DNA of 62,323 nucleotides, filler included, from a bacterium (GTDB lineage: Bacteria > UBA9089 > CG2-30-40-21 > SBAY01), in NCBI GenBank assembly GCA_040757115.1. It is 11 parts of 11 records of this genome, joined end to end, with 100 filler letters (N's around TTAATTAATTAA, not from the genome) between each part and the next. Parts side by side here need not be neighbours in the genome. Positions count along the whole stretch, not along the records: positions 45,632 to 51,131 come from JBFLYA010000248.1; 10 more parts are not named here. One strand, written 5' to 3'. The notes below the pieces were generated by a model. That model was given only the letters and a program-made list of their open reading frames with translations. It was not told the DNA's origin and searched no databases. A program made the translations under genes and the position numbers. Shown piece after piece: positions 5,791 to 51,848 of the stretch (the first letter of the stretch is position 1; each line of letters opens with the position of its first letter).

Positions 5791-6103
5791 CCTCTTTGAA
5801 ATTTGATTTGTAATTTTGCATTTTGATATTTATATTTGATATTTAATATTTGATATTTGATATTTATTTGTTGTCTCCCTCAAATCCTATTTTGCAGAAC
5901 CCTATACACTATTTTAATCTTTATGCTAGATTAAGACACCACCCAATTTTCATCGTCATTTGTGCCCTGGAGGGGCATGAGCGTTTCTCCTTATCATTCT
6001 TATGTTATTATCATACCTTAGCCATACAGAATTTCTGAGATGGCTCATTTAGCTGAAATTGAAAATTAGAAATTAGGGAATTAAGATTTCGATTCTCTAA
6101 CTT

Positions 6104-6355
6104 TCATTTCACAACCTCAACTACTCGCCAGTGTTTAAGTTTTGATAAAGGTCTTGTTTCCATAATACTTACTTGCGAACCTACCTGGCAGATATTTTTT
6201 TCGTCATGGGCATAGAATTTACTTCTTCTTTTTATAACCTTTTTATAAAGTGGATGTTTAACGGCACTAACAACTGAGACGACAACGGTCTTGTCCATTT
6301 TATTACTAATTACTGTGCCAACTTTAACCTTTCTGGGTTTTCTTTGTTGTTCCAT
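6104..6355 (-). CDS. rpsQ: 30S ribosomal protein S17
   Basis: [26 protein letters not shown]; position in S10 operon. Confidence 0.97.
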
Positions 6356-6570
6356 TAATGTTTCTCCCTTATACCTAATTCGTATTCTCTCAAGAGTGTA
6401 TTTATTTTTGCGATTGAGCGTCTTAATGTCCGAATTTTTGAAGGATTTTCTAAATGTTTCATAGCAGAATGTGCTCGTAAATTTAGCACCTCACCAAAAA
6501 ATTTCTCTTTCTGGCTTTTTAACTCATCTAAATCCATTTCTTTTAAGTCTCTAAAATCTCTAAGTTTCAC
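6355..6570 (-). CDS. rpmC: 50S ribosomal protein L29
   Basis: [19 protein letters not shown]; between rplP and rpsQ. Confidence 0.92.
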
Positions 6571-6573
6571 TTA

Positions 6574-6987
6574 TTATTCTCCTTCTCTTGTTACGAATTT
6601 TGTTTTTATCGGTAACTTATGAGCAGTTAAAAGGAGTGCTTCGTGGGCTAATTCTTTTGTTACGCCGCCTAATTCATAAAGAATCCGTCCAGGTTTAACA
6701 ACAGCAACCCAATATTCAGGTGCTCCTTTACCTTTACCCATTCTTGTTTCAGCCGGTTTTTTGGTTACAGATTTATCCGGGAATATTCTAATCCACAATT
6801 TACCACCCCTTTTAATATGTCTGGAGATAGCAATTCTGCCGGCTTCGATTTGTCTATTGGTTATCCAACCACACTCTAATGCCTGTAAGCCATATTCTCC
6901 AAAGTTAAGTTGAGCGCCGGCGGTAGATATTCCCTTTCGTCTACCGCGATGTGTTTTTCGATATTTAACTCGTTTGGGCATCAACAT
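6574..6987 (-). CDS. rplP: 50S ribosomal protein L16
   Basis: [23 protein letters not shown]. Confidence 0.98.
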
Positions 6988-7675
6988 TGATTTCTTCCTC
7001 CATTAATTTCGCTCCTAATCCCATTAATCTTGCTTTTTCTCTCTCTTCCTCAGATAAAATCTCACCTTTAAATATCCACACCTTTATCCCAATTCGGCCA
7101 TAGGTAGTTACTGCTTCTGCGGTGGCATAATCGATTTCAGCTCTCAGGGTATGAAGTGGAACTCGTCCTTCCCGATACCACTCACTTCGAGCTATTTCTG
7201 CACCGCCAAGCCTACCACCACAGGTTACTTTAATTCCTTTAGCCCCATGGCGCAGCGCCGTTATAACTGCCTGTCTCATTGCCCTTCTAAAAGAGATTCT
7301 TTTTTCTATCTGGATAGCGATATTTTCTGCAACCACCTGAGCCTCTAATTCTGGTTCTTTAATCTCATTAATATCAATTTGAATCTGGAGGTTAGTCATT
7401 TTTAGAATTTCCTGGCGTAATTTTTCTACATCCTGTCCTCTGCGACCAATGACTATTCCCGGTCGAGCAGTATAAATGGTAATTCTCATTTTCTGCCCAA
7501 ATCGCTCAATAATGATTTTTGACACACCAGTTCTCTTCAATCTCTCTTTGATAAACTTTCGAATTTTCAAGTCTTCAATCAAATCATTTCTATAGGATTT
7601 TTTTGAAAACCAGCGTGATTCCCAATCATAGATATACTTTAACCTGAAACCTATTGGATGAACCTTTTGTCCCAA
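6965..7675 (-). CDS. rpsC: 30S ribosomal protein S3
   Basis: [22 protein letters not shown]. Confidence 0.98.
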
Positions 7676-7692
7676 ATTTTACTCTCCCTTTC

Positions 7693-7905
7693 TTATACTT
7701 TCATAAACTCAGGTAGCACTATCGCCCAATTTATTAATTGCACCAATAAAATTACCAGGGCAATCAATACAACTACCTTTAAAATAAACTTTATCATATC
7801 TTTCTTTTCTTTACCCTTCGAATACTCCCGATAATAACCAATTGTTTCATAGACCGTGAGAAGTGTGACTAAAGCCATTAACGCTACATAAACCCATAAT
7901 GTCAT
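7693..7905 (-). CDS. Small hypothetical protein with two predicted transmembrane segments, inserted between rplV and rpsC
   Basis: AGGAGG RBS, two hydrophobic segments separated by a basic loop, same strand as the operon. Confidence 0.7.
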   Translation of the reverse strand: MTLWVYVALMALVTLLTVYETIGYYREYSKGKEKKDMIKFILKVVVLIALVILLVQLINWAIVLPEFMKV

Positions 7906-7961
7906 TTTACATTACCTCCTTTTTTTTATTTCAGAAGTTACTGTCCTCTGACTTCTGAGAT

Positions 7962-8297
7962 TTAATATTCATCTACGACTATGGTGATATGGCTTGTTCT
8001 TTTACAAATTCGATAAGCCCTACCCATAGCGCGTGGTTGAATTCGTTTTAAAGTAGGTCCCTGGTCAACAAAGGCATTTTTGACATATAAATTACCTACC
8101 TGGACATTTATTCCTTTTTGTCTGGCATTAGCGATAGCTGAATGCAATATTTTTTGAACTATGCGGCAGGCTTTTTTAGTCGTAAATTTAAGCATATTAG
8201 TCGCCTGTTCCACTGGTTTACCCTGAATAAGGGTAGTTACCTGCCTTGCCTTTCTTGGTGAAATACGAATATATTTAGCCTTTGCTTTTGCTTCCAT
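7962..8297 (-). CDS. rplV: 50S ribosomal protein L22 (start revised to MEAKAK)
   Basis: ISPRKARQV, PRAMGRA..I.KRTSHITI; GGAG RBS before ATG at 8297. Confidence 0.97.
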   Translation of the reverse strand: MEAKAKAKYIRISPRKARQVTTLIQGKPVEQATNMLKFTTKKACRIVQKILHSAIANARQKGINVQVGNLYVKNAFVDQGPTLKRIQPRAMGRAYRICKRTSHITIVVDEY

Positions 8298-8367
8298 GAT
8301 ATTATCTCCATTGAAAGTAGTCCGTGCAGAGTGAAACTCGTTACTCTTCACTGTCTACTTTACTTCC

Positions 8368-8652
8368 TTATTTCAATGCTCGTGATTTTTCCGTATGAGT
8401 GCCGTGACTTCTAAATGTTCGGGTCAGAGCAAACTCTCCCAGTTTATGTCCAACCATATTTTCCGTGATATAGACCGGGATAAATTTTTTGCCATTATGA
8501 ATGGCTAATGTATATCCGACAAATTCTGGGGAAATAGTTGAGCGTCTTGCCCAAGTTTTGATTACCTTTTTTTCCCCTCCTTCATTCATCTTTTTAATCT
8601 TATCCATTAATTTAGTATCAATATAAGGTCCTTTTTTAATTGAGCGTCCCAT
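8368..8652 (-). CDS. rpsS: 30S ribosomal protein S19
   Basis: [17 protein letters not shown]. Confidence 0.98.
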
Positions 8653-8657
8653 CAGAT

Positions 8658-9482
8658 TTATTTGCTTCTCCTTTTAACAATAAATTTCTGGGTTCTTTTA
8701 TTTTGTCTTGTCCGATAACCTTTAGTTGGTTTCCCCCATGGACTCACCGGATGTCTTCCACCTGATGTTTTTCCTTCCCCGCCGCCGAGTGGGTGGTCAA
8801 CAGGATTCATCGTGACCCCGCGATTATGAGGTCTTTTACCCAGCAAGCGAGTTTTCCCTGCTTTACCCAGGTTAATATTTTCATGTTCTACATTTCCTAC
8901 CTGTCCGATAGTTGCCATACAATCCACATGGACTAATCGAACTTCACCCGAAGGAAGGGTAATATGTGCATAATTCCCTTCTTTAGCATTTAATTGGGCA
9001 GAAGAGCCTGCTCCCCGCACTATTTGTCCGCCTTTGCCTTTTCTTAATTCAATGTTATGGATAGTTGTTCCTGTGGGTATTGCTCGCAAGGGAAGTGCAT
9101 TTCCTGGTTTAATATCCACTTCTTCACCCGCACATACCGTTTCACCTACCTTTAATCCCATTGGAGCAAGGATATACCTTTTTTCTCCATCTAAATAATG
9201 AAGTAAGGCAATATGAGCAGAGCGATTTGGGTCATATTCAATTGCCGCCACCTTTGCCTCAATCCCAAATTTATTCCGTTTAAAGTCAATTATTCTATAG
9301 AATCGTTTATGGGCACCACCACAAAACCGAACAGTTATTCTGCCTTGATTATTGCGACCACCTGAACGCGGTTTAGATATAACTAATGACTTCTCGGGTG
9401 TTTTTTTTGTAATCTCATCAAATCCTACAACACTCATTCCTCGTCTGCCAGGGGAAGTAGGATTATATTGTTTAATTGCCAT
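8658..9482 (-). CDS. rplB: 50S ribosomal protein L2
   Basis: [21 protein letters not shown]. Confidence 0.99.
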
Positions 9483-11790: not shown

Positions 11791-13857
11791 ATGGCTATAG
11801 CAAGAGCACAAACAGTTCCAAGATTAACCTGGATGCAGCAGGCAGATATATTAATCGCGATATTTATACTTTGTATCATCGTAATGCTGGTTATTCCACT
11901 ACCACCATTATTTATTGATTTATCCATCGCTATGAATTTAACCTTAGCCATTGTGGTTATTTTATCTGTGAGTTACTTATCTAAAGTTACTGATTTTTCT
12001 GTATTTCCATCTCTTTTATTGGTAACGACTGTGTATCGGTTAGCGATTGAAGTTTCTACCGCAAGACTTATTCTCAACGGACGGGGTGGAGAGGTAGGGA
12101 TTGTGCGGACATTTGGAACATTTGTCGTGGGCGGGAATTTAGTTGTTGGGATTGTGATATTTCTGATTTTAGTTATAATTCAACTTTTAGTGATTGTGCG
12201 AGGGACAATGCGGGTTTCAGAGGTAGCGGCAAGATTTACCTTAGATGCTATGCCAGGCAGACAGATGGCGATTGATGCGGATTTGAATGCGGGTTATATT
12301 ACGGAAAAAGAGGCGGCAGATAGACGAATGCAAATCCGTAAAGAAGCAGATTTCTACGGTGCAATGGATGGTGCGGCAAGATTTGTTCAGGGAGATGTTA
12401 TTGCTGGTGTGGTTATTGCCGCTATCAATATCATCGGTGGCTTAACGATTGGTGTTTTAATGCGTGGTGAACCATTAGCCGATGCATTCCACGATTATAC
12501 AACTTATACCGTTGGCTGTGCACTTTCGGCTCAAATACCAGCATTCCTCATCTCCGTGGCTACAGGTTTAATCGTGGCAAGGGCGGCTACTGAAGAAAAT
12601 TTAGGATTAGATGCGGTTAATCAATTAACCGCTCAACCCAGAGTGTTATGGATAGCCACCGGCTCTTTAATCTTCTTCTTACTTACGCCTTTACCTAAAA
12701 TTCCTTTGATTCTTGTTGCCACAACCATTGGCTCAATCGCTTATTTAATGAGTAAATCGTTGAAGGTAGAAGAAAAGAAAACAGTAGAGGAGAAAAAGAA
12801 AAAGGAGTTAGAATGGCTTAAAAAACCTGAAAGTGTCACCTCTTTACTGGCTATGGACCCAATGGAACTTGAGATTGGCTATGCACTCATCCCTCTTGTT
12901 GACCCGGAACAAGGTGGGGATTTATTAGATAGAGTGACTATGCTTCGCCGACAATCAGCCCTTGAATTAGGAATAGTTGTTCCGCCAATTAGAATTAGAG
13001 ATAATATTCAACTAAAACCAAATACTTATGTTATTAAAATAAGAGGATTTGAGATAGGTAAAGGCACTATAAAAATCGACCGGTATCTGGCAATGAATCC
13101 CGGAACAATAACTGAAGAAATAGAAGGCGAGACAACAATAGAACCCGCCTATGGTTCTCAGGCTATCTGGATTAAAGAAGAACAAAGAGAAGAGGCAGAG
13201 AAAATGGGCTATTCCATAATTGACCCTCCAACAATTATCTCAACTCATCTCCAGAAAATAATAAGACAAAACGCCCCGGATTTAGTTACCAGACAGGATG
13301 TTCAAAGTTTAATAGATACCCTCAAACAAAATCATCCAACAGTCGTTGCAGAATTAATCCCCAGCCAATTAAGTTTAGGTGAGGTTCAGAAGGTATTACA
13401 TAATCTTTTACGAGAGGGGATTTCAATTCGTGATTTATTAACTATTGCTGAGGTATTAGCGGATTGGGCACCAAAAACCAAAGATATTGGCTTTCTAACT
13501 GAACAGGTAAGGATGAGTCTGGCAAGACAGATTATTCGACAATATTCGAGAGATGGCATTTTATCCGCCATCACCTTACATCCAAAATTAGAGAATGAAA
13601 TGGCTGATAATCTTCAACAAACATCAGAAGGAGAACAAGTTATACTTGACCCAATCAGACTTCAGAAGATTATTCTGGCACTTCAGGAAGAGATAAAGAA
13701 AAATATTAAGGAAGACCCTGTTATTTTATGTTCTCCCAGAATAAGAAGGCATTTTAAAAATTTAATTATGAACTCAATCCCTCAAATAGGTGTTATATCA
13801 TATAATGAAATAACAAATGTCGAAGTAAAATCAGTGGGGATGGTGAGTGTATCATGA
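11791..13857 (+). CDS. flhA: Flagellar export apparatus protein FlhA
   Basis: FSVFPSLLL, RVSEVAARFTLDAMPG, EADFYGAMDGA; followed by flhF/flhG. Confidence 0.97.
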   Translation: MAIARAQTVPRLTWMQQADILIAIFILCIIVMLVIPLPPLFIDLSIAMNLTLAIVVILSVSYLSKVTDFSVFPSLLLVTTVYRLAIEVSTARLILNGRGGEVGIVRTFGTFVVGGNLVVGIVIFLILVIIQLLVIVRGTMRVSEVAARFTLDAMPGRQMAIDADLNAGYITEKEAADRRMQIRKEADFYGAMDGAARFVQGDVIAGVVIAAINIIGGLTIGVLMRGEPLADAFHDYTTYTVGCALSAQIPAFLISVATGLIVARAATEENLGLDAVNQLTAQPRVLWIATGSLIFFLLTPLPKIPLILVATTIGSIAYLMSKSLKVEEKKTVEEKKKKELEWLKKPESVTSLLAMDPMELEIGYALIPLVDPEQGGDLLDRVTMLRRQSALELGIVVPPIRIRDNIQLKPNTYVIKIRGFEIGKGTIKIDRYLAMNPGTITEEIEGETTIEPAYGSQAIWIKEEQREEAEKMGYSIIDPPTIISTHLQKIIRQNAPDLVTRQDVQSLIDTLKQNHPTVVAELIPSQLSLGEVQKVLHNLLREGISIRDLLTIAEVLADWAPKTKDIGFLTEQVRMSLARQIIRQYSRDGILSAITLHPKLENEMADNLQQTSEGEQVILDPIRLQKIILALQEEIKKNIKEDPVILCSPRIRRHFKNLIMNSIPQIGVISYNEITNVEVKSVGMVSVS

Positions 13858-36034: not shown

Positions 36035-37759
36035 ATGCTTCATAAAATATATTTAGCCTTTTTATGGCATTTTCATCAACCAATGTATAAAAATATCATT
36101 AATACTCAAAAAGGGGCATATTTTATGCCATGGGTAAGAATGCACTCGATAAGAGATTATTTTAGTATGGCATATTTACTTAAAAAATATCCCAAAATAC
36201 ATCTTACCTATAATTTTGTTCCATCTTTATTATGGCAAATTGAGGATTATGTTAATAATTCAGCCACAGATAGAGAATTAGAATTATCATTAAAACCCGT
36301 TTCTAAATTATCTCAAGGAGAGAAGAATTATATTTTAATGCACTTTTTTGATGGAAATTATGAAACTCAAATTTATCCATATCCTCGATATAAAGAGTTA
36401 TTGCAAAAAAGACAATCTAAAAAAACCTTTACCGGGCAAGATTTGATTGATTTAAAGATGTGGTTTAATTTAAGTTGGTTTGGGGAAATATTTAAACAAG
36501 GCGAGGTAACACTCCCGGATTCAAATATTCTCCCGGTTAAAGATTTTATAGAAAAGGATAGTGGATTTAAAGAAGATGATATTACTCAAATAATAGATTT
36601 GCAGTATAAAATTATGCGTAATATCATTCCTATTTATAAAAATCTTCAGGAGAAAGGTCAGATTGAAGTTTCTACCAGCCCATTTTACCATCCAATTATT
36701 CCTTTGATTTATGATACAAATCAGGCAACTATTGATAAAGAGGGATTGACATTGCCACCACGCTTTTCAATGCCAGGGGATGCAAAGGCACAGATTGATT
36801 TAGCCGTTGAGTATTATTCTAAGATATTTGGTCAACCGCCACGAGGGATGTGGCCATCAGAAGGGGCTGTAAGTCAATCGACTATTCATCTATTTGCTCA
36901 GGCTAATCTCAACTGGATTGCTACGGACCAGGGGGTATTACAGAAATCCGGTAAATATGGCTACGAGGCTTATAAGCCAGATGTCCTATGTTCACCTTAC
37001 TTAGCCTTCGATGAAGAGAAAAATTCAGAGATAACCATTTTCTTCCGCGAAACTAAATTATCTAATGTTATAAGTTTTGATTATCAAAGATATAGAGATT
37101 ACAAACAGGCGGCTATGGAATTTATTAATTGGGTAAAGGGATTTGCCCATAACGAAGACCGAATTTTAACTGTTATCCTTGATGGAGAAAATCCCTGGGG
37201 ATATTATCGTAAGACGGGCGTAGAATTTCTTAATGCCCTTTATAAAAATTTATCTAAAGATAAAGAAATTATTACAGTTACATTTTCAGAATACATCACT
37301 GGTAATTCTGCTCGAGGTATTTTAGCCCATCCTAAAGAGACTCAAAAAAAGGTTTATGACCTATTTTGTGCCAGCTGGATAGACCAGGCCGGGTCTATGC
37401 CCGGAAATGACCTTGGCACCTGGATAGGTGATAAAGAAAAGAATAATGCCTGGAATTTACTCCGTTTGGTTAGGGAGGATTTAGACAAAAAGGGTATTAC
37501 CCCACAAAACTATCCACAGGTGTTTGAATCAATCTATGCGGCAGAAGGAAGCGATTGGTTCTGGTGGTATGGCACTGATTACTCAAGTGACCGTGATGAC
37601 CAGTTTGATACATTATTTAAAGACCATTTAAAAAATGCCTATTTGCGATTAGGATTGACATCAAGTCTCACCCAAAATTCTGTTAACATAACTTCAAATT
37701 TAGGTAACCCTTCAGATAGTAATTCACCGCAGAGACGCAGAGGAACGGAGAAGACATAG
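36035..37759 (+). CDS. Glycoside hydrolase family 57 (amylopullulanase-like); last ~18 aa are repeat-derived
   Basis: WHFHQP, HPIIPL, WPSEG, LDGENPW, AEGSDWFWW. Confidence 0.9.
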   Translation: MLHKIYLAFLWHFHQPMYKNIINTQKGAYFMPWVRMHSIRDYFSMAYLLKKYPKIHLTYNFVPSLLWQIEDYVNNSATDRELELSLKPVSKLSQGEKNYILMHFFDGNYETQIYPYPRYKELLQKRQSKKTFTGQDLIDLKMWFNLSWFGEIFKQGEVTLPDSNILPVKDFIEKDSGFKEDDITQIIDLQYKIMRNIIPIYKNLQEKGQIEVSTSPFYHPIIPLIYDTNQATIDKEGLTLPPRFSMPGDAKAQIDLAVEYYSKIFGQPPRGMWPSEGAVSQSTIHLFAQANLNWIATDQGVLQKSGKYGYEAYKPDVLCSPYLAFDEEKNSEITIFFRETKLSNVISFDYQRYRDYKQAAMEFINWVKGFAHNEDRILTVILDGENPWGYYRKTGVEFLNALYKNLSKDKEIITVTFSEYITGNSARGILAHPKETQKKVYDLFCASWIDQAGSMPGNDLGTWIGDKEKNNAWNLLRLVREDLDKKGITPQNYPQVFESIYAAEGSDWFWWYGTDYSSDRDDQFDTLFKDHLKNAYLRLGLTSSLTQNSVNITSNLGNPSDSNSPQRRRGTEKT

Positions 37760-37913
37760 AAATAAATCAGATAACAGAAAAGAGAGTAGAAAGGCACAAG
37801 GTTTTCTGACTACTGACTATTGACTACTGATTTAATGTTGCGCTACTCAAGAGCTTGCCCTGATGAAAATCAGGGATGTTATGCGTCTCTGCGTCTCTGC
37901 GGTAAACGGTGGC
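37704..37913. mobile_element. Degenerate GTAA-end element overlapping the GH57 stop
   Basis: GTAACCCTTCAG..ACCGCAGAGACGCAGAG / CTCTGCGTCTCTGCGGT inverted pair. Confidence 0.65.
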
Positions 37914-43513: not shown

Positions 43514-45301
43514 ATGCAACAATATCGAACGAACCTATTAATTTGTGCGGGCACTGGTTGTGTTGCCAGTGGTTCATTAAAGGTAAAAGCATCATTAGAA
43601 GAAGAACTTAAAAAACATAATCTGCAGGATGAAATTGGAATAGTTTTAACCGGGTGTAATGGTTTCTGTGCTCAGGGACCATTAATGGTTGTTTATCCAG
43701 AAGGTATATTTTATCAAGGACTTAAACCAGAAAATATACCATTTTTAGTTGTAGAACATTTCTTGAAAGGGCGACCTGTTAAGGACTTAATGTACACACC
43801 TCCAGCAGAAAAAGAACCTGTTCCGGCAATGAGAGATATTCCATTTTTTAGCCGTCAGATATTACGGGCTTTACGGAACCGTGGTTTGATTGATGCCGAG
43901 AAGATTGATGAATATATTGCCCGCGATGGGTATCTGGGTGCATCTAAAGCATTACTTGAAATGACCCCGGAAGAAATAATCCAGGAAATAAAAGATTCTG
44001 GGTTACGAGGTCGAGGTGGTGCTGGTTTCCCAACCGGGTTAAAATGGGAATTTTGCTCTAAGGCGAAAGGGGATATTAAGTATATTTTATGTAACGGAGA
44101 TGAAGGAGACCCAGGGGCATTTATGGATAGGTCTATATTAGAAGCTGACCCACATGCGGTTTTAGAAGGAATGATTATTGGAGCAAAGGCAATTGGTGCT
44201 CATAAAGGCTATATCTATGTTCGAGCAGAATATCCATTAGCCGTGAAACGACTTGAGATTGCTATTGAACAGGCAACTGACTATGGACTTTTAGGAAAAG
44301 ATATCTTAGGTTCAGGGTTTGATTTCGAAATAGAGATTTATCAAGGGGCAGGGGCATTTGTTTGTGGTGAAGAGACCGCATTAATGACATCAATTGAAGG
44401 AAAAAGAGGAATGCCGCGACCAAGACCTCCATTTCCGGCTCATAAAGGACTCTGGCAAAAACCATCGGTATTAAATAATGTAGAGACATTTGCCAATGTT
44501 CCCCAGATTATTCTTAATGGAGGAAGTTGGTATGCCAGTCTTGGCACTGAAAAGAGTAAAGGAACTAAAGTATTTGCTTTAACGGGTGCAATAAACAATA
44601 TCGGTTTAATAGAAGTTCCAATGGGTATCCCATTACGCCAGATTATCTATGATATTGGAGGTGGCATAAAGAATAGGCGTAAATTTAAGGCAGTCCAGAT
44701 GGGTGGTCCTTCGGGTGGTTGTATTCCAGAAAGTCTTTTAGATATCCCGGTTGACTATGAATCTATTACCCAGACTGGTGCAATTATGGGTTCTGGTGGA
44801 ATGGTTGTTATGGATGAAACAACCTGTATGGTTGGAATTGCTAAATTTTTCTTAGAATTCACTCAAGATGAGTCTTGTGGTAAATGTATTCCCTGTCGAG
44901 TAGGAACAAAGGTAATGCTTGATAAATTAGAAGAAATTACCTCAGGACAGGGAAAAGAAGGTGATATTGAATTATTAGAAGAATTAGCAGAAGATATTAA
45001 AAATACATCTTTATGTGGGCTGGGACAAACAGCACCTAATCCCGTATTAACGACCATTAAATATTTCCGGAGCGAGTATGAAGCACATATTAAAGAAAAA
45101 TATTGTCCCGCTCATTCTTGCTTGCCTTTATTGAAGTTCGAGGTAATTCCTGAGTTGTGTAAAATGTGTGGTCAATGTGCCAAAAGTTGTCCTGTAAGTG
45201 CTATTACCTGGGAAAAGAAACAAGTAGCAAAGATAGATAAAGAGAAATGCATTCGATGTAAAACCTGTATTACCAGCTGTCGCTTTATGGCGATTGAATA
45301 A
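43514..45301 (+). CDS. NADH-binding flavoprotein subunit (HndC/HydB/NuoF-like) of a bifurcating-type oxidoreductase
   Basis: N-terminal thioredoxin-like 2Fe-2S, GRGGAGFPTG, NGDEGDPG, CGKCIPCR..C, C-terminal 2x[4Fe-4S]. Confidence 0.9.
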   Translation: MQQYRTNLLICAGTGCVASGSLKVKASLEEELKKHNLQDEIGIVLTGCNGFCAQGPLMVVYPEGIFYQGLKPENIPFLVVEHFLKGRPVKDLMYTPPAEKEPVPAMRDIPFFSRQILRALRNRGLIDAEKIDEYIARDGYLGASKALLEMTPEEIIQEIKDSGLRGRGGAGFPTGLKWEFCSKAKGDIKYILCNGDEGDPGAFMDRSILEADPHAVLEGMIIGAKAIGAHKGYIYVRAEYPLAVKRLEIAIEQATDYGLLGKDILGSGFDFEIEIYQGAGAFVCGEETALMTSIEGKRGMPRPRPPFPAHKGLWQKPSVLNNVETFANVPQIILNGGSWYASLGTEKSKGTKVFALTGAINNIGLIEVPMGIPLRQIIYDIGGGIKNRRKFKAVQMGGPSGGCIPESLLDIPVDYESITQTGAIMGSGGMVVMDETTCMVGIAKFFLEFTQDESCGKCIPCRVGTKVMLDKLEEITSGQGKEGDIELLEELAEDIKNTSLCGLGQTAPNPVLTTIKYFRSEYEAHIKEKYCPAHSCLPLLKFEVIPELCKMCGQCAKSCPVSAITWEKKQVAKIDKEKCIRCKTCITSCRFMAIE

Positions 45302-45856
45302 AATAAACATAGCCGTTCACCGCACAGACGCAGAGAAAAAAATTAAAATCTATTCACCAGAGACAGAAATTTCCTTTTTTTGTGCATTTCGGGTCTTTCG
45401 TTGTTTATAGCGGTTATTAACTGGAAGTTTACATAGGATAATACCCATAAATAAGGCATGAGAATAATCGTTCCGTTAGGAACATAATATCGGTAGGAAT
45501 AGATAGACAAATCAATCAGTTCCGTAGGAACNNNNNNNNNNNNNNNNNNNNNNNNNNNNNNNNNNNNNNNNNNNNTTAATTAATTAANNNNNNNNNNNNN
45601 NNNNNNNNNNNNNNNNNNNNNNNNNNNNNNNGATTTGTAATTTTACATTTTGATGTTTGATTTTTAATTTATTTTATGGTATTCCAGAAAAGTGGAAGTT
45701 AATTTTGCAAAAACCATTAGGTTCGCTTTCCTGCTTGCCAGAAGCGAGGCTAAAGCCTTGCACTACAAATTTTCCACCTGTGCGGTTAGATTGACCTTCC
45801 TCACATCTTTAAAACCACGAAAGACACGAAGGGCACGAAGAATTATAAAGCAAATC

Positions 45857-46065
45857 GTAACTATTCAGCCGCAGATGGACACGGATGAAACACGGAAAAT
45901 TCGTGAATCGTGTCCGGTATCCGTGTCCGTAATTAGGCTAAAGGGTTTTTCTCCTGTTGTCCTCTGCCCTCTGCCTTCTGCCCTCTGCCTTCTGCCCTCT
46001 GCCCTCTGCCTTCTGCCCTCTGTCCTCTGCTATTTATCCGTGTTAATCCGTGGCTGAATAGTTAC
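45857..46065. mobile_element. GTAA-end element containing a TCTGCC(C/T) heptamer array
   Basis: GTAACTATTCAGCC / GGCTGAATAGTTAC; supplies the stop codon of the TPR gene. Confidence 0.8.
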
Positions 46066-48567
46066 ACCTCTCTTAAAATCTCCTCAATGGTCTTGCGGAA
46101 TTCCATTGGCTGTCGCTCAATTAACTCGCTTTTCCTGGTATAAAGATACTCAATCGCTTTTCCCATCGGATAAAGCACATCAAGCAGGCTTTGGGATGCC
46201 TTCTCCTGACATAACTGAAATAGACGATAGGCATCTTCGTATCTCTTTACCTTAAGAATCCCCTTAAATATATTGGTGAAGTCTTGACCAAATTCCTCTA
46301 TATCCTCTTCCTTAAACCTTGCTAGACCAAAAATAATTGCCTCTTTGTAGGCTGCGATTGCCTTGGTGTAATCTTCCATCTTACGGTAAGCAATGCCCAT
46401 ATTATACCAGGCGTTATAATAATCAGGCTTTATCTTGATTGCCTTCTGGTAGCATGAGATTGCCCTGGTGTAGTCTTTCATCTCAAAGTAAGCATTGCCC
46501 ATATTATACCAGGCTTCATCATTATCAGGCTTTAGCTTGATTGCCTCCTGGTAACAGGAGATTGCCTGGGTATAGTCTTTCATCTCATCGTAAGCATTGC
46601 CCATATTATTCCAGGCTTTATCCTTATCAGGCTTTATCTTGATTGCCTTCTGGTAGCATGCGATTGCCCTGGTGTAGTCTTTCATCTGACGGTAAGCAAT
46701 GCCCATATTATACCAAGCTTCATCATTATCAGGCTTTAGCTTGATTGCCTCCGGGTAGCATGAGATTGCCCTGGTGTAGTCTTTCATCTCATCATAAGCA
46801 ATGCCCATATTATACCAGGCGGCATCAAAATCAGGCTTTAGCTTGATTGCCTCCTGGTAACAGGAGATTGCGTGGGTGTAGTCTTTCATCTCAAAGTAAG
46901 CATTGCCCATATTATACCAGGCTTCATACCTATCAGGCTTTAGCTTGATTGCCTCCTGGTAGCATGAGATTGCCTGGGTGTAGTCTTTCATCTCANNNNN
47001 NNNNNNNNNNNNNNNNNNNNNNNNNNNNNNNNNNNNNNNNNNNNNNNNNNNNNNNNNNNNNNNNNNNNNNNNNNNNNNNNNNNNNNNNNNNNNNNTTGAT
47101 TGCCTCCTGGTAGCATGAGATTGCCTGGGTGTAGTCTTTCATCTCAACAAATATATATCCCTTGGAAAACCATATCGAAGCGGTAGTCTCTAAAGAAACC
47201 CTTACATCTTGCATAATTTCATCAAGTATCTCAAGGCATGAGGTAAATTCCCTGGCGTCTATCTTTTCCCAGACCTCATCTATCTTTTCTGTATATTTTT
47301 CATCTATTCTGGCTAATCCTTCTAATGCCTCCTTGAGATAGGTTATTTTTTCTTCCCTCTCTGGTAGAGAAGCCATTCTTTCTGTGCGGATAATTTCTGT
47401 CTTTAATTCCTCTTTGGTGAACCATATTTGCAGGAAGATAATGAGAAATTGAATCCTTTGTTCGGACCTTCCACCAGTTCTCATCTGATACCAGACCCGA
47501 AATATCTGCTCGCTCAATTCATATCCAGTAAGGTTCTTTGTTCGGGTAAATTTAATTGGGGTTAAATAGCCATCATCCATTAAGCGAGAAATTTGAGCGG
47601 TCACCGTATTTATCAAAAGCCCGGTCTTCTGGCTAATCTCTTTTGGGCTTAAAATAAGAGAGTCTTTGGCAATAGCATCGATGATGACCTGTTGTTGTGG
47701 AGAGAGTCTATGAATCTTCTCTAAGAAGTATTGGGATTGTTCATCAAGGATAGATTTCAGGTAAGTGATAATATCCTTTAATTCACCAGGGATAATGAAT
47801 TGATAGAGGATAAGCAACAATCTTGGATTGCCACCAGTAAGCTGGTATAATGCCTTTAGACGGGAAGAGAGTATTGCTTGTGGGAATTTATTTAATACAT
47901 CATCTTTCCCATCAAGCCTGAATCTTAAATAGAGAAGCCTTTCAAATTCATCCTCTTTAAGCTCGGTGATTTCCTCTATCTTAAAGAATCGATAAAAAGG
48001 TTCTTTTTCGTCTCTGATTTCTTTAAATAGGCTAATTGCGCCGCCATAGATAAGCAGATATGGGTCATTCATCAGGATATCCCGCAGCCTGCGGACTTCT
48101 ATTGTTTTAAACCTTGAGAGGATAAGGTTAAAATTATCAACCAGAATCAGCACATTTTTGTTTTTTCTTTTCAAATAGTCTATAAGGAAGGCATAAGATG
48201 TGGTATAATCATCCTTTGGAAAATCCTTTGCCAGGCTACTATCTTCCCGAGAAAGCTCCTCTAATATTCTTGCAAAGAATGTTTTTAAATCGGTAATCCC
48301 AAATTCCTCTTCAGCAAATTGGACAGGAATCCAGAAAGAAGAAATCTCTGGGCAATCCTTGACTTTAAAATAGACCATGGATAAAAGGTGGGTTTTACCC
48401 ATACCTCGGGGAGCCTTCAGGAGAATATGCTGATGATGGGGCTTATCCCTTTCCTTTTTTAGTCTGGTGATCAGGCTTTCAAAGAGTGCCTTTCTGCCCA
48501 CAAAGGTTTCAAAAAGCTCCTCTTTGGTCATCTGTTGTGGATTGTATTTATAAAGCACCTTTTCCAT
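46062..48567 (-). CDS. STAND-like P-loop ATPase, winged helix and TPR array (one gene split by the 100-N gap at 46996-47095)
   Basis: APRGMGKT, ILVDNF, TGGNPR, PKEISQKTG..VTAQISRL; the same MKDYTQAISCYQEAI repeat lies on both sides of the gap. Confidence 0.85.
46380..47146 (-). repeat. Near-identical 102-bp TPR-coding tandem repeats; copy number unresolved
   Basis: At least 6 units; the assembly gap lies within the array. Confidence 0.92.
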
Positions 48568-48571
48568 AATT

Positions 48572-50047
48572 CTAACCTAAATACCTTGAATGCCGAAGCC
48601 ACCAATCACGGATGAGATTGCTGGTGAACATATAATTTCCTTCTGCCTTTTTAATATAGAATTCATCCTCTAAATATGCCATCAGTTTATCAAAATCATC
48701 CGCAGGTGCCACGGGACAGCTTTCTTTAAAAATCCCCTTAATCTCACTCTCGTTCCTTTGCCCCCTGGTTAATTCTTCAAAAATAGCCTTAATACCAGGG
48801 AAAGGTTGATAGAATTCACTAACCCTATAACTCATCAGACGCTCATAATAATGCCTGAAGTAGGTCTTAGATTCTATCCCTAATAACCTTTCTTGATAAA
48901 CCTGTTCAATCCCTTCAACAGTCAGGTGCTTATTTTCCCTGATTATCCCCTTTTCTATCTCAAAGACAAATAACTGGATAAAATAGGGGATGGGTGCACC
49001 AACCAGGTGTCCTATCTTCTTGACAAATCCCTCCTCTGGTTTTATCCCTATTCTGCTCAGTAAAATCTGGGTAAGTTCATAGCCATCATTATCGGATAAA
49101 GGTAGTAATTGCTCTTTTTTAAAGAGTGAGTAAAAACCATCTTTATCTTCATACTCAATCTCATCAATGAGTCGGTGAATAAGGATAGAACCCGTAAGGA
49201 TGAACCTTGTTTGATTTGGAATAGAGAGAGTCTCTTTAAGGACGGACAGGAATTTATGAGCCTCGGTTTTGTTTTTAATAAGATTCTCAAGCATCCCGGA
49301 AAATTCATCAAACAAAAACAGGATTTTTTCTTTTAAACCGCTATAAAATTCCAACCACACCCTTTCCCAGCTATCCTTAATGGATTCTTTAAAGGTTTGT
49401 TTTTCATTATTTATCTCCTGTTCTGTCTTATGGTCAAATGCCCGCATTATCCAACGCCGATAGCCCATTATCACCTCCGCGGTAAATGATTGTCCATCCG
49501 AGATGCCCTCTAAATCAATGAGCAGGGGAAGGAAATCCTCTCTGGGATAATCTAAGAGCTGGTAAAGTAGGCTTGTCTTACCAAACCTTCTGGGTGCAAC
49601 CAGAATAATATGGTCTGTGTTTAATACCTGCCAAAGCTGGTTGATAAAATCTTCCTGATTAAAAAAGTCCATACCCCGGGCAATGACACCCAGGGAAAAA
49701 TCAGGCAGGTAATCTTTCTCTCCCTGTTTTATCTTCAAAACTACCTCTTTAAATAGCCTTTTATTGAATCTGGCATCTTTGTCATAAAAGAGTTCAATGG
49801 GAAATATTGCCGGTTCTGGCAAGGCGAATTTGCCTTCTAATCTCTCAAGGTCAAAGATGGATAATAATTCAACCTCGTTATCCGGGAAGCCCTCTTCTAC
49901 CATCTTATACATCTCAAAGACTATGTCTTTATGTTGGATATTGGTTTTAGAAAAATCAGTAATTTCAATAAAAAGGTTTTGGATAACATTTCCCTCTTTA
50001 TCCTGAATACCAAATAGGACACCCTCTTTCTTCATCTTAATCACCAT
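48572..50047 (-). CDS. P-loop ATPase (archaeal-ATPase/STAND-like) with a ~110-aa uncharacterised N-terminal domain
   Basis: DFFNQE, APRRFGKTSLL, FLFDEF, FILTGS, PYFIQL, LIRDWW. Confidence 0.85.
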   Translation of the reverse strand: MVIKMKKEGVLFGIQDKEGNVIQNLFIEITDFSKTNIQHKDIVFEMYKMVEEGFPDNEVELLSIFDLERLEGKFALPEPAIFPIELFYDKDARFNKRLFKEVVLKIKQGEKDYLPDFSLGVIARGMDFFNQEDFINQLWQVLNTDHIILVAPRRFGKTSLLYQLLDYPREDFLPLLIDLEGISDGQSFTAEVIMGYRRWIMRAFDHKTEQEINNEKQTFKESIKDSWERVWLEFYSGLKEKILFLFDEFSGMLENLIKNKTEAHKFLSVLKETLSIPNQTRFILTGSILIHRLIDEIEYEDKDGFYSLFKKEQLLPLSDNDGYELTQILLSRIGIKPEEGFVKKIGHLVGAPIPYFIQLFVFEIEKGIIRENKHLTVEGIEQVYQERLLGIESKTYFRHYYERLMSYRVSEFYQPFPGIKAIFEELTRGQRNESEIKGIFKESCPVAPADDFDKLMAYLEDEFYIKKAEGNYMFTSNLIRDWWLRHSRYLG

Positions 50048-50706
50048 TCCTCCTCCTTAATTTCTCTCTGAAGAATATCAAAGAACTCATCTGCGACATA
50101 CAAAAGTTCACTCATAGCATTCATCTTAATCTTACCTACAGGAGAGACTTTTCTTTTCTCTCTTTCAGGTTCATATATCAGGTAATGGTCTTTCTTATCC
50201 CATGCCCAGGCAAGCATAGTCATTATCTGAATCTCTATCTTTGGGCATTCAGGCTTTTCTTTGCTTTTAAAGACAAGGTAGTATGCCCTTATCCCTTTTA
50301 CTTTTGTAGGTTTTTTCATCCTCTTTTCATAGATTGTGTCTTTTTTCTCTACAATTTCAAATCGTTGGGCAATTTTCTCACTCTCTTTCAACCTTTGATT
50401 AATCTTTTTGGCATCAGAGAGGTAATTGCATATTATTCTATCTCTGAATATATCTGGAAACTCACAAAAGGGATTTTCTATGGTATATTTGCTCCTTTTT
50501 ATCTTGTCTATAATGCTTGTTGGACTTTTAATTTGCATTTGGGGTGTATCCTTATTCTCTATTTTTGCTACGAAGCGGTTGACTTTCAATCCCTTTTCTA
50601 TTTCTTTAATCTCTTCTTCAATAAGTTCAATAATCTCCTTAAGGACAGGTGCATAGAGGAATATAATCTCTGCTCGTTTTTTCTTCACTATTTCTTCAAG
50701 AGACAT
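50041..50706 (-). CDS. Divergent RelA/SpoT-domain (small alarmone synthetase-like) nucleotidyltransferase
   Basis: IKSPTSIIDK, PDIFRDRIIC..SD, EIQIMT..AW...DH.LIY; start revised to ATG at 50706. Confidence 0.75.
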   Translation of the reverse strand: MSLEEIVKKKRAEIIFLYAPVLKEIIELIEEEIKEIEKGLKVNRFVAKIENKDTPQMQIKSPTSIIDKIKRSKYTIENPFCEFPDIFRDRIICNYLSDAKKINQRLKESEKIAQRFEIVEKKDTIYEKRMKKPTKVKGIRAYYLVFKSKEKPECPKIEIQIMTMLAWAWDKKDHYLIYEPEREKRKVSPVGKIKMNAMSELLYVADEFFDILQREIKEEEW

Positions 50707-50762
50707 ATTTTTATCTTTCCTTGATATACGACAAATTTGTTGCACAACATTTTTGTTGTATA

Positions 50763-50791
50763 ATTATAATAAATAAATTTTAAGTTGTCAA
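50763..50791 (-). promoter_or_regulatory. Consensus sigma70 promoter of the RelA-like/ATPase/TPR operon
   Basis: TTGACA-17 bp-TATAAT. Confidence 0.75.
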
Positions 50792-50810
50792 GTCATTTTT
50801 GCCATTTTTT

Positions 50811-51003
50811 GTAACCGTTCACCGTAGAGACACAGAGACGCAGAGAAAAACACACCCCTAACCCCTCTCAAGAGGGGAAAATCTATGGACGATACGCAGA
50901 AATTGGCTTGTCTGTTGAACATTCGGCAAGCAGGTCATAAGTATTTCAATAGCTGCACCAATAATCTTCTCTGTTCCTCTGCGTCTCTGCGGTAAAGGAC
51001 TAC
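50811..51003. mobile_element. GTAA-end element with a short GxxExxY fragment
   Basis: GTAACCGTTCACCG / CGGTAAAGGACTAC; minus strand 50942-50974 reads TEKIIGAAIEI. Confidence 0.7.
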
Positions 51004-51005
51004 CT

Positions 51006-51131
51006 TGTTAATGGCAAACCAAAATTGACCCACTTTTGGCAATGGAAATTGACCCACCCATGTAAAAAAATCAGATCAAAAATGAACAAATTTGGCAATG
51101 AGAATTGACCCACCCCCGGATATAAAGATTG
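51006..51131. mobile_element. IS21-family terminal region (cut by contig end)
   Basis: Starts TGT; three GGCAA....AATTGACCCAC repeats, typical of the multi-repeat ends of IS21 elements. Confidence 0.75.
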
Positions 51132-51275
51132 NNNNNNNNNNNNNNNNNNNNNNNNNNNNNNNNNNNNNNNNNNNNTTAATTAATTAANNNNNNNNNNNNN
51201 NNNNNNNNNNNNNNNNNNNNNNNNNNNNNNNTTAAATAAATTATCAAAGAGCAGATTATGTTAACAAGATTTATC

Positions 51276-51848
51276 TCAATTTTTAGTTTTTTTAAATTTA
51301 GTTATATCTTGCTGGGGGATAGTCTGTCTTTTTTTACTTGACATTATACCGCACATCTCTACTATCACATAAATAATAAGTGCTCGAAACTGCCAGTTTT
51401 TTCTTCTATCCTTAATTACTTTTATTAATGTTGGTACGCCTGCTTTACCAATATTTACTAACTCCATTAACAATCTGCGAATATCATCTCCTTTTGGTAT
51501 ATCGCTTTTTTTAATTTCCTCCATACTTTTAAAATCTTCCAGCCTAAAGAGAGGAAACATCTCTATTCTCTTAACAACTTCTAATACCTTTTTTTCTATT
51601 TGCTTCTTCTGTCTTTTAGAAAGCTTAGGTTCACTCTGGTTAATTTCTTTCTTTAGTTGTATTTTAGCCTCTGCTTTTTGTTCTCTACTCTTATCTATTA
51701 GCTCCAAGCCCGTAGTTTTTTCTTCTTTGTTCTTCTTAGCAACTTCTTGCTCTTTGCTCTGCTGTCCACAACCAAGAAATATGCAGACCAACAGTATCAA
51801 TAATCCACTAAAGACTAAATACAACCGCTTACTGATTACTAATTCCAT
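51276..51848 (-). CDS. Putative lipoprotein with a HEAT-like segment
   Basis: Hydrophobic leader ending IFLGC; TTGACT-17-TATAAT promoter 9 nt before ATG at 51848. Confidence 0.55.
   Translation of the reverse strand: MELVISKRLYLVFSGLLILLVCIFLGCGQQSKEQEVAKKNKEEKTTGLELIDKSREQKAEAKIQLKKEINQSEPKLSKRQKKQIEKKVLEVVKRIEMFPLFRLEDFKSMEEIKKSDIPKGDDIRRLLMELVNIGKAGVPTLIKVIKDRRKNWQFRALIIYVIVEMCGIMSSKKRQTIPQQDITKFKKTKN

Follow-up and report, generated by a model that had tools for sequence, protein, structure and literature searches.

A conserved three-gene cassette coupling a small-alarmone-synthetase-fold enzyme to two paired NTPases, a candidate split NLR/STAND-like conflict system

Within a window of 62,323 nucleotides, the whole stretch of DNA analyzed here, which consists of parts of 11 records of the bacterial assembly GCA_040757115.1 joined end to end, we characterized a group of three tightly coupled genes, termed A, B and C. 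Gene A encodes a RelA/SpoT homologue with the small alarmone synthetase (SAS) fold, gene B a nucleoside triphosphatase (NTPase) with a private amino-terminal domain (N-domain), and gene C an NTPase–winged-helix protein ending in an array of tetratricopeptide repeats (TPRs). This trio is a rare, conserved and self-contained cassette. Whether it constitutes a split NLR/STAND-like conflict system, in which C senses, B helps and adapts and A acts as the effector, is in our judgment evenly balanced; such a system would probably be anti-phage and of the abortive-infection type.

A word-seeded search of a collection of 5.8 billion proteins yielded 16 protein clusters of the A family, and scans with the A-family alignment located 15 A-containing contigs, two from metagenome-assembled genomes (MAGs) and 13 from metagenomes. 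All eight contigs that continue for 1.5 kb or more past A gave A-B-C by tblastn, in the same order and on the same strand (L001, L002, L003, L004, L006, L007, L011 and L012; L003 ends after the first 37 residues of C, and A and B of L007 are truncated). The start of B was found in 3/3 contigs with 0.2–1 kb downstream (L009, L010, L014), and the contigs without a B match (L005, L008, L013, L015) extend for at most 341 bp beyond A. Of the 24 phylum genomes surveyed, six carry A-like genes, including one of five in the same family and two of six in one genus. The full trio was present in G001, G004, G006, G021 and G023, where G004 and G006 correspond to the two MAG contigs and the other three are further phylum genomes, bearing out the conservation of the gene trio that a first-pass annotation of this DNA had proposed to survey. 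The sixth genome, G019, carries a decayed copy (L032 = G019:C178, ~5944–9315) with fragments of A (TAA stop) and of B beside an apparently intact C of 921 aa. Strong B matches (E <= 6e-28) were confined to these six phylum genomes, six others showing matches to the ATPase core alone at E 1e-17 or weaker. The flanking genes differ at every trio locus, and the labels of the family members span at least three lineages, namely candidate division WOR-3, Desulfobacterales-type MAGs and a Desantisbacteria MAG. One contig (L001, G004:C177) is labelled Marinifilum sp. and may be mislabelled; its genome was assigned to the order that also includes G001 and the Desantisbacteria MAG. We found no small antitoxin-like open reading frame (ORF) conserved next to A at the trio loci, and no fourth conserved gene accompanying the trio in any locus. 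In G006, which also has a full trio, a second, weak A-like match (L031 = G006:C293, 5999–6427; E 1e-11, 188-aa frame) lies on an 8,368-bp contig without a match to the B and C queries, and may represent a relative that stands alone or else an ordinary SAS.

Gene A scored 34.3 bits (E 3e-8) with the Pfam family RelA_SpoT (PF04607), whose cutoff is 27, and this family is annotated in all 16 A-family members. Compared with known structures, the A-family profile aligned at near full length with RelP/YwaC (E 5e-15) and RelQ/YjbM (E 1e-13) and more weakly with CapRel (7ztb, E 1e-5). Foldseek searches with the AlphaFold2 (AF2) model (predicted local distance difference test, pLDDT, 88.7) likewise returned RelP/RelQ as top matches (E ~2e-9; template modeling (TM) scores of 0.65–0.71 by query length and 0.73–0.79 by target length) and CapRel 7ztb at E 4e-7, placing gene A closer to RelP/RelQ than to CapRel by both approaches. 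Invariant across the family are D85, R88, R90, E158, Q160, T163, W169, H174 and Y178, of which D85/R88/R90 align with the DIAGVRI and E158/Q160/T163 with the EIQIRT motif of RelP/RelQ; in the first motif, K/S/K, K60 and K68 are conserved to at least 90%. Gene A encodes a true SAS-fold enzyme, its catalytic residues conserved, in line with the RelA/SpoT-like enzyme that had been proposed from the sequence.

The A family departs from RelP/RelQ at four positions, as the Tyr of the GYRSxH motif is replaced by I139 (I/V/E in the family), its His by Y143 (variable), the Arg of EIQIRT by M162 (M/Q), and the Lys of HxxYK by E179 (Glu). The latter three we take to be guanine-nucleotide acceptor-site residues in RelP/RelQ. 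The Tyr of GYRSxH corresponds to Y128 of FaRel2, described in the accessible text of PMC11782079 as a base-coordinating G-loop residue, at which the A family carries Ile, Val or Glu instead. Against the NCBIfam model NF053588 (GTP diphosphokinase YjbM equivalog) gene A scored 31.3 bits, failing the cutoff of 320. We read gene A as an enzyme whose pyrophosphate-donor and catalytic site appears intact and whose acceptor site appears rebuilt relative to (p)ppGpp synthetases. These features touch on both sides of one alternative explanation, that the trio is a housekeeping-type stress or signaling module, in which the TPR–NTPase pair (MalT/AfsR-type) would respond to an endogenous metabolite or to the state of a protein and steer an alarmone synthetase of its own so as to tune the physiology of the cell. 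We consider this rather unlikely: that A shares the complete fold of the non-toxic RelP/RelQ agrees with it, whereas the family-wide replacement of four residues typical of the acceptor site in (p)ppGpp synthetases does not.

Gene B is a P-loop ATPase with a match to PF09820 (26.5 bits, cutoff 26.1), and its Walker A (APRRFGKTS) and Walker B (D243–E244, DEF) motifs are invariant in 21 sequences. Its model (pLDDT 86.9) comprises an α/β N-domain, a low-confidence linker, an NTPase with helical lid, and a carboxy-terminal winged helix. The Foldseek search with the whole protein, which is dominated by the ATPase part, gave PAB2304 (2qen, E 3e-9) and SSO1545 (2fna, E 5e-9) as top matches, followed by ORC/Cdc6 proteins and plant NLR NB-ARC domains. 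Compared with relatives of ~405 aa, gene B carries ~112–125 additional amino-terminal residues, in good agreement with the extra domain of ~110 aa noted on the first ATPase in the first-pass annotation, and residues 5–103 of this N-domain are modeled as β-β-α-β-β-α. Its 69 homologues comprise 17 proteins of 447–515 aa, most of which align from the N-domain on, 39 proteins of 357–418 aa lacking the first ~115 residues (~75% query coverage), and 13 weaker matches.

A profile of the N-domain retrieved 28 proteins from 1.84 billion representatives, with the match located amino-terminally in 26 of them; 16 are of B length, ten are short proteins (91–281 aa) with an amino-terminal match, possibly contig-end fragments, and two are multi-stretch matches that look like repeat noise. 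Neither Pfam nor PADLOC contained a relative of the N-domain, and its best score in the ESM Atlas (0.77) was below a meaningful level. Within the Pfam, PADLOC, ESM Atlas and 1.84-billion library searches the N-domain is thus confined to this B subfamily. It also tracks A. The distance from the first Met of B to Walker A is 147–172 residues at ten A-linked loci and 36–38 residues at two A-less plasmid loci, and tblastn and ORF coordinates likewise revealed the extension at the A-linked loci L010, L014, L029 and L030 and none at the A-less L020 and L033; the N-domain is present where A is and missing from the A-less plasmid B/C pairs. None of the 69 B homologues has the length expected for a fusion of A and B, where the fusion searches for B and C homologues scored the ~8000 candidates sharing most words.

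A co-fold of A with the B N-domain, a check proposed in the first-pass annotation, gave an ipSAE interface score of 0.66 (0.65–0.69 in three runs), whereas none of three controls exceeded 0.11. Among solved complexes 58 of 80 attain the 0.66 mark, as do two of 110 mismatched pairs, calibration counts that are rough for our own, shallow alignments (16 rows for A, nine for the B N-domain). The runs agreed in at least 94% of the contacts with a partner pLDDT of at least 78, and since the Pfam, PADLOC, ESM Atlas and 1.84-billion library searches gave no relative of the N-domain outside the B subfamily, the result is unlikely to reflect memory of a solved complex. In the predicted interface, residues 9–24 of A, forming a long amino-terminal helix, and residues 53–56 pack against residues 28–43 and 56–65 of B. 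The model supports binding of A by the B N-domain through this helix and, with the predicted interface away from the active site of A, suggests a docking site for tethering rather than inhibition. In FaRel2 the amino-terminal helices anchor the tRNA, according to the accessible text of PMC11782079, and speculatively, by this analogy, the B N-domain may occlude a substrate-docking surface of A.

The predicted contact also has a bearing on a toxin–antitoxin (TA)-like addiction module, in which A would be a toxic SAS, the B N-domain a fused antitoxin and the ATPases regulators of stability or turnover devoid of pathogen sensing. The genes overlap and are arranged for translational coupling, conserved overlapping two- or three-gene SAS operons being a trait that the trio shares with toxSAS systems, and such TA-like arrangements indicated toxicity in the accessible text of Jimmy et al. 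2020 (PMC7229694); moreover, A is predicted to bind the B N-domain, and the loci have no other antitoxin-like ORF. The known toxSAS antitoxins, as far as described in the available parts of PMC7229694 and PMC11782079, are however small proteins or domains, whereas the partners here measure ~490 aa and at least 800 aa and possess conserved NTPase motifs and sensor-type repeats, and the predicted interface leaves the active site uncovered. We therefore regard an addiction module as distinctly unlikely, although it overlaps with the split conflict system, as many abortive-infection systems behave as TA pairs. Compared with toxSAS and CapRel(SJ46), the trio is alike in having a SAS-fold enzyme, a tightly coupled operon and a protein partner (here a predicted contact), and differs in that this partner is an NTPase of ~490 aa together with a TPR–NTPase, not a small antitoxin or a pseudo-zinc-finger domain.

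Gene C matched the Pfam families HTH_24, ORC-CDC6-like, AAA_22, AAA_16 and ATPase_2. Among eight homologues the Walker A residues G55/G57/K58 and a TGGNPR motif are invariant, and Walker B follows the pattern hhhh[D/E]-N, with N145 invariant in the eight sequences and without the usual second acidic residue. As Walker A is intact and Walker B lacks the catalytic glutamate, the C NTPase may act as a nucleotide-bound switch. The TPRs (TPR_1, E 6e-78) form seven stretches distally and one unit before an assembly gap, giving at least eight units, and at the DNA level a tandem repeat with 102-bp period, 6.5 copies and 86% matches, so that the description of C as an ATPase-wHTH-TPR protein stands. 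The gap consists of exactly 100 N (46997–47096) within the TPR array of a gene spanning 48567..46062; its two halves are one gene, their frames differing because the gap length is arbitrary, and the product has at least 799 aa. The copy in G001 has just two TPR units (613 aa), reflecting either real variation or assembly collapse. The carboxy-terminal cap showed weak tblastn matches in L007 and L032, and some C homologues match the TPR-S 'sensor' model.

The Arch-ATPase family PF01637 is not listed for the window's B and stays below its cutoff of 33.2 bits for the window's C, and is reached by the C homologues of L001 (48.9 bits) and L002 (49.8 bits). PF01637 matches occur in homologues of both proteins, and the best structural matches of B, 2qen and 2fna, are structures of this family, whose members come with or without DUF234. 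Both B and C fall nearest the Arch-ATPase (PF01637)/ORC-Cdc6 grade rather than the named Avs clades. Gene C begins directly with its NTPase, leaving no effector domain on the same polypeptide, and its 20 longer homologues contain neither PF04607 nor another recognizable effector.

The role of A among such NTPases can also be approached from catalogued systems. In the accessible text of Kaur et al. 2020 (PMC7159879) a RelA nucleotidyltransferase domain is listed among the 'nucleotide-generating' domains of NTPase conflict systems, and the available part of Kibby et al. (bioRxiv 10.1101/2022.07.19.500537) places alarmone synthetases of bacterial NACHT proteins under 'nucleotide-signal-generating/degrading enzymes'. 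Alarmone-synthetase effectors on STAND NTPases are thus already catalogued, as rarer effectors and there only as fused domains. Both classifications would suit A as a signal generator, whose product would serve as a nucleotide second messenger for the ATPases themselves or for a receptor-effector encoded at another site. We consider this very unlikely, given that no fourth conserved gene accompanies the trio at any locus and that neither B and C nor the 20 longer C homologues showed a nuclease, pore or other effector domain.

B-like genes also occur without A. On plasmids, a B core lacking the N-domain is directly followed by an overlapping C-like gene, which encodes a 943-aa TPR protein in Clostridium estertheticum (pCF003-70, L020), a 699-aa protein with a NACHT-model match and 30% identity to the window's C over 397 residues in Moraxella osloensis (pNP7-2, L019), and 298 aa in Segatella copri (L018). 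The neighbors of these pairs include QatD, DUF262, WYL, DUF3800 and GIY-YIG genes, and the pairs reached no PADLOC model; they are possibly an unnamed two-gene system of cultivable bacteria. Distant matches to A were found on plasmids as well, at 25–29% identity. From the occurrence of N-domain-less B cores with overlapping C-like genes on plasmids devoid of A, the sequences indicate that the B/C NTPase pair is the older core, to which the SAS-like gene and the B adaptor domain look to have been added jointly in one branch.

We infer the interaction of B with C, the trigger, activation by oligomerization, the toxicity of A and the defense role from this architecture, and the mechanism would proceed as follows. 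C would be the sensor, with its TPR array binding the trigger and its NTPase, Walker A intact and Walker B without catalytic glutamate, serving as the nucleotide-bound switch. B would be the helper and adaptor, a putatively catalytically competent paralogous NTPase without sensor repeats, whose private N-domain would hold A by its amino-terminal helix, and A the effector, a SAS-fold pyrophosphokinase with a seemingly intact donor and catalytic site and an acceptor site unlike that of (p)ppGpp synthetases. Trigger-bound C would nucleate the oligomerization of B and C, by which A would be clustered or released, and freed or clustered A would pyrophosphorylate an acceptor, either a nucleotide or an RNA 3′ end, resulting in growth arrest.

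Sensor–helper NLR pairs are known from mammals (NAIP–NLRC4) and plants (sensor NLR–NRC helper), where a repeat-bearing sensor NTPase has no link to the effector and the amino-terminal domain of a sensor-less paralogue engages the executor. The trio resembles these pairs by analogy, as C carries the repeats and B is sensor-less with an N-domain for the executor, and differs in that the executor is a SAS-like enzyme, not CARD/caspase or a membrane pore, and in that the NTPases belong to another clade. Tentatively, and with more doubt than confidence, we propose B and C as a bacterial 'sensor–helper' NLR-like pair, in which hydrolysis-deficient C nucleates B, the B adaptor recruits A, and A pyrophosphorylates a target other than GDP/GTP. 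With the same reserve, and by analogy with NAIP–NLRC4 or plant sensor/NRC pairs, the product of A could then be a new toxic nucleotide or A could act on a new macromolecular target. The trio follows the same logic as the Avs and other NLR-related STAND proteins, with TPRs as the sensor at the carboxy terminus, a winged-helix-bearing NTPase in the middle, and an enzyme as effector. In contrast to these, its parts are distributed over three polypeptides with two paralogous NTPases, its effector is free and, as judged from the model, apparently recruited through the private adaptor domain of the sensor-less NTPase, and its NTPases are Arch-ATPase/ORC-like without a PADLOC Avs or NACHT model, with a sensor Walker B of the form [D/E]-N. 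Relative to the catalogued forms, the three-protein split, the paired Arch-ATPase-grade NTPases of which one has a degenerate Walker B, the private adaptor and the atypical acceptor site set the trio apart.

The first-pass annotation had recognized no named system in this combination, which our searches corroborated. PADLOC 2.0 on A, B, C and their homologues returned noise-level matches and no defense label (Cas3 E 0.004; mad8 about 1e-4 to 1e-5 across homologues), the best for the window being Avs5 (E 0.0025, 13.9 bits) and PDC-S01 (E 0.006) for B and mad8 (E 7e-4) for C. For the trio proteins nothing in NCBIfam came near a cutoff. The literature searched contained no description of an A-B-C operon, although supplementary tables, which lie outside this coverage, may list the clade. 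Likewise, RelA, alarmone or ppGpp are not mentioned in the main text of a 2026 STAND survey (PMC13581612), whose supplement may list the clade, and RelA or alarmone enzymes are not mentioned in the searchable text of DefensePredictor (PMC13092281).

The genomic context was assessed for nine loci with flanks by PADLOC 2.0 and Pfam, where the neighbors of L002 and L017 were judged by Pfam only. Strong defense-type neighbors were present at three of them: a type IV methyl-directed restriction endonuclease (E 1e-87) and a DRT-like fragment at L006, PDC-S05 at L001, and PDC-S01 (E 1.5e-111) and PDC-S27 (E 6e-45) at L029. PDC-S27 and PDC-S01 are themselves single genes without a SAS partner or N-domain, and B and C miss these PADLOC models. 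At L029 (G021:C45, 8384–13333) the Arch-ATPase+DUF234 gene (PDC-S27) lies upstream of the trio and the PDC-S01 ATPase downstream; the former is flanked by two MalT-like TPR proteins and a 485-aa protein without Pfam match, together forming a small NTPase/TPR cluster.

Several observations speak for the split conflict system, namely the conserved A-B-C cassette with its patchy, mobile-like behavior, decayed copy and surroundings of miniature inverted-repeat transposable elements (MITEs) and insertion sequences (IS), the architecture of B and C as nucleotide-binding domain, lid and winged helix like that of ORC/Cdc6 and NLR NB-ARC proteins, with C ending in TPRs, the SAS-fold enzyme in a TA-like operon, the co-occurrence of the N-domain with A and the co-fold above controls, and the defense-type neighbors at 3/9 loci together with plasmid B/C pairs near QatD, DUF262 and WYL genes. 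Other observations weigh against it. The remaining six of the nine loci (L002, L004, L007, L011, L017, L032) have housekeeping neighbors only, including a tRNA synthetase, MnmA, PriA, IlvD, RuvB and secretion ATPases; searches of IMG/VR gave no relative of A or B, and searches of phage records no relative of the B core; PADLOC assigned no label; a Methylomonas plasmid carries a B-core gene without a C-like neighbor, showing that B/C pairing is not universal; the pI (isoelectric point) of the A family ranges from 5.3 to 9.5 without conserved basic character, lending no support to an RNA target; the co-fold alignments are shallow; and the predicted interface favors tethering over inhibition. Of the defense system originally put forward, the conserved cassette, the SAS enzyme and the NLR/STAND-like C hold, whereas a defense neighborhood was found at a minority of the loci.

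The same context bears on the stress or signaling module introduced above. Most loci lie amid housekeeping genes, winged-helix domains are present on both ATPases, and the full trio has no phage or plasmid association, all of which would be expected for an endogenous function. Such a module is at odds, however, with the patchy distribution (6/24 phylum genomes, variable within one genus, one decayed copy), with the variable flanks and adjacent MITE/IS elements, and with the placement of the winged helices, which corresponds to the module of nucleotide-binding domain, lid and winged helix in ORC/NLR proteins. Even as a stress-signaling module the trio would represent a previously undescribed wiring of alarmone-type chemistry. 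If it is instead a split conflict system, it would be a naturally 'split' NLR-like machine with sensing, oligomerization or adaptation, and execution on separate proteins, in which the binding of the trigger to the TPRs, the assembly of an active NTPase with a degenerate one into hetero-oligomers, and the recruitment of the effector via a small adaptor domain could be tested separately. It would moreover imply a new mode of regulation in the RelA/SpoT superfamily, in which NTPases, and not small antitoxins or ribosomes, control a SAS-fold enzyme, possibly with a new acceptor specificity. The A-less B/C pairs on Moraxella, Clostridium and Segatella plasmids offer tractable entry points in cultivable hosts.

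The features of the locus are compiled in Table 1. For comparison we used the nearest genome, G001, whose proteins are 93–96% identical to those of the window. The promoter, predicted as a perfect sigma70 site, is the sole 12/12 site among 26 promoter-like matches in 45300–51400 and is identical in G001, where the DNA just 5′ of the −35 hexamer differs. The tight coupling described for the three genes was equally evident: the stop of gene A overlaps the first ATG of gene B (ATGGTGA), a second B ATG, the start used in the G001 protein record, follows 5 nt past the stop, and 4 nt separate the stop of gene B from the ATG of gene C. The start of gene A is most likely ATG 50706 (221 aa) rather than GTG 50745, since two 1-nt indels between these positions break the GTG frame in G001, whose ORF begins at the ATG.

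Table 1. Features of the A-B-C locus; positions count along the window.
Feature	Position	Strand	Remarks
Sigma-70-type promoter	50763..50791	minus	TTGACA-17 nt-TATAAT, 12/12 match
Gene A, 221-aa RelA/SpoT homologue, small-alarmone-synthetase fold	50041..50706	minus	alternative GTG start 50745
Gene B N-terminal domain, ~112 aa, subfamily-private, predicted A docking site	49700..50035	minus	
Gene B core: Arch-ATPase/ORC-like NTPase + helical lid + C-terminal winged helix	48572..49699	minus	
Whole gene B	48572..50035 or 50047	minus	
Gene C N-terminal part: NTPase + winged helix (HTH_24) + helical linker	47182..48567	minus	
Gene C TPR array, 34-aa units, 102-bp period	46316..47181	minus	assembly gap inside
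Gene C C-terminal helical cap, 3′ of TPRs	46062..46315	minus	90% identical in G001
MITE-like element directly upstream of promoter	50811..50997		end motifs 50817–50837, 50977–50997
Second MITE-like element, abuts gene C stop codon	45857..46065		inverted repeat arms
IS21-family terminal repeats, contig end	51035..51114		two copies of 24-nt motif

The locus is flanked by the miniature elements and the IS21 end that had been noted. The upstream MITE-like element has a 16-nt inverted repeat (94% complementary), and its site is empty in G001; the downstream one has inverted repeat arms of 33 nt (85% complementary). The 24-nt repeat occurs at 51035–51058 and 51091–51114, and its assignment to an IS21 end is supported by G001, where it recurs close to IstA/IstB_IS21 genes, following the carboxy terminus of IstA and, at a distance of ~70 bp, an IstB_IS21 gene (E 2e-84). 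The N blocks at 45533–45632 and 51131–51230 carry a central TTAATTAATTAA, and the third N run, inside gene C, has no such linker; N runs with TTAATTAATTAA resemble six-frame-stop linkers between separate contigs. From this, and from the protein record for A, which lists 5500 as the longest contig, we infer that the trio sits alone on a contig of ~5.5 kb (45633–51130, 5498 bp), and that the window beyond it is unreliable as genomic context. Repeats at the ends of such a contig are to be expected.

In G001 (L017 = G001:C390, ~13630–13850) a MITE-like element of ~210 bp with the ends GTAAGCGTTCAGCC.../...GAACGGTTAC is located exactly between A and B, lengthening the A frame by ~17 codons and uncoupling A from B; the window copy is free of this insert. 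A MITE end motif, GTTCACCGYASAGACRCAGAG, is present in at least six copies in the window (37722–37907, 45315, 50817–50997, 54029; 0 expected), including two pairs ~160–185 bp apart, a spacing as in complete elements. Within the element downstream of gene C, the heptamer CCTCTGC is repeated in ten tandem copies at 45961–46030.

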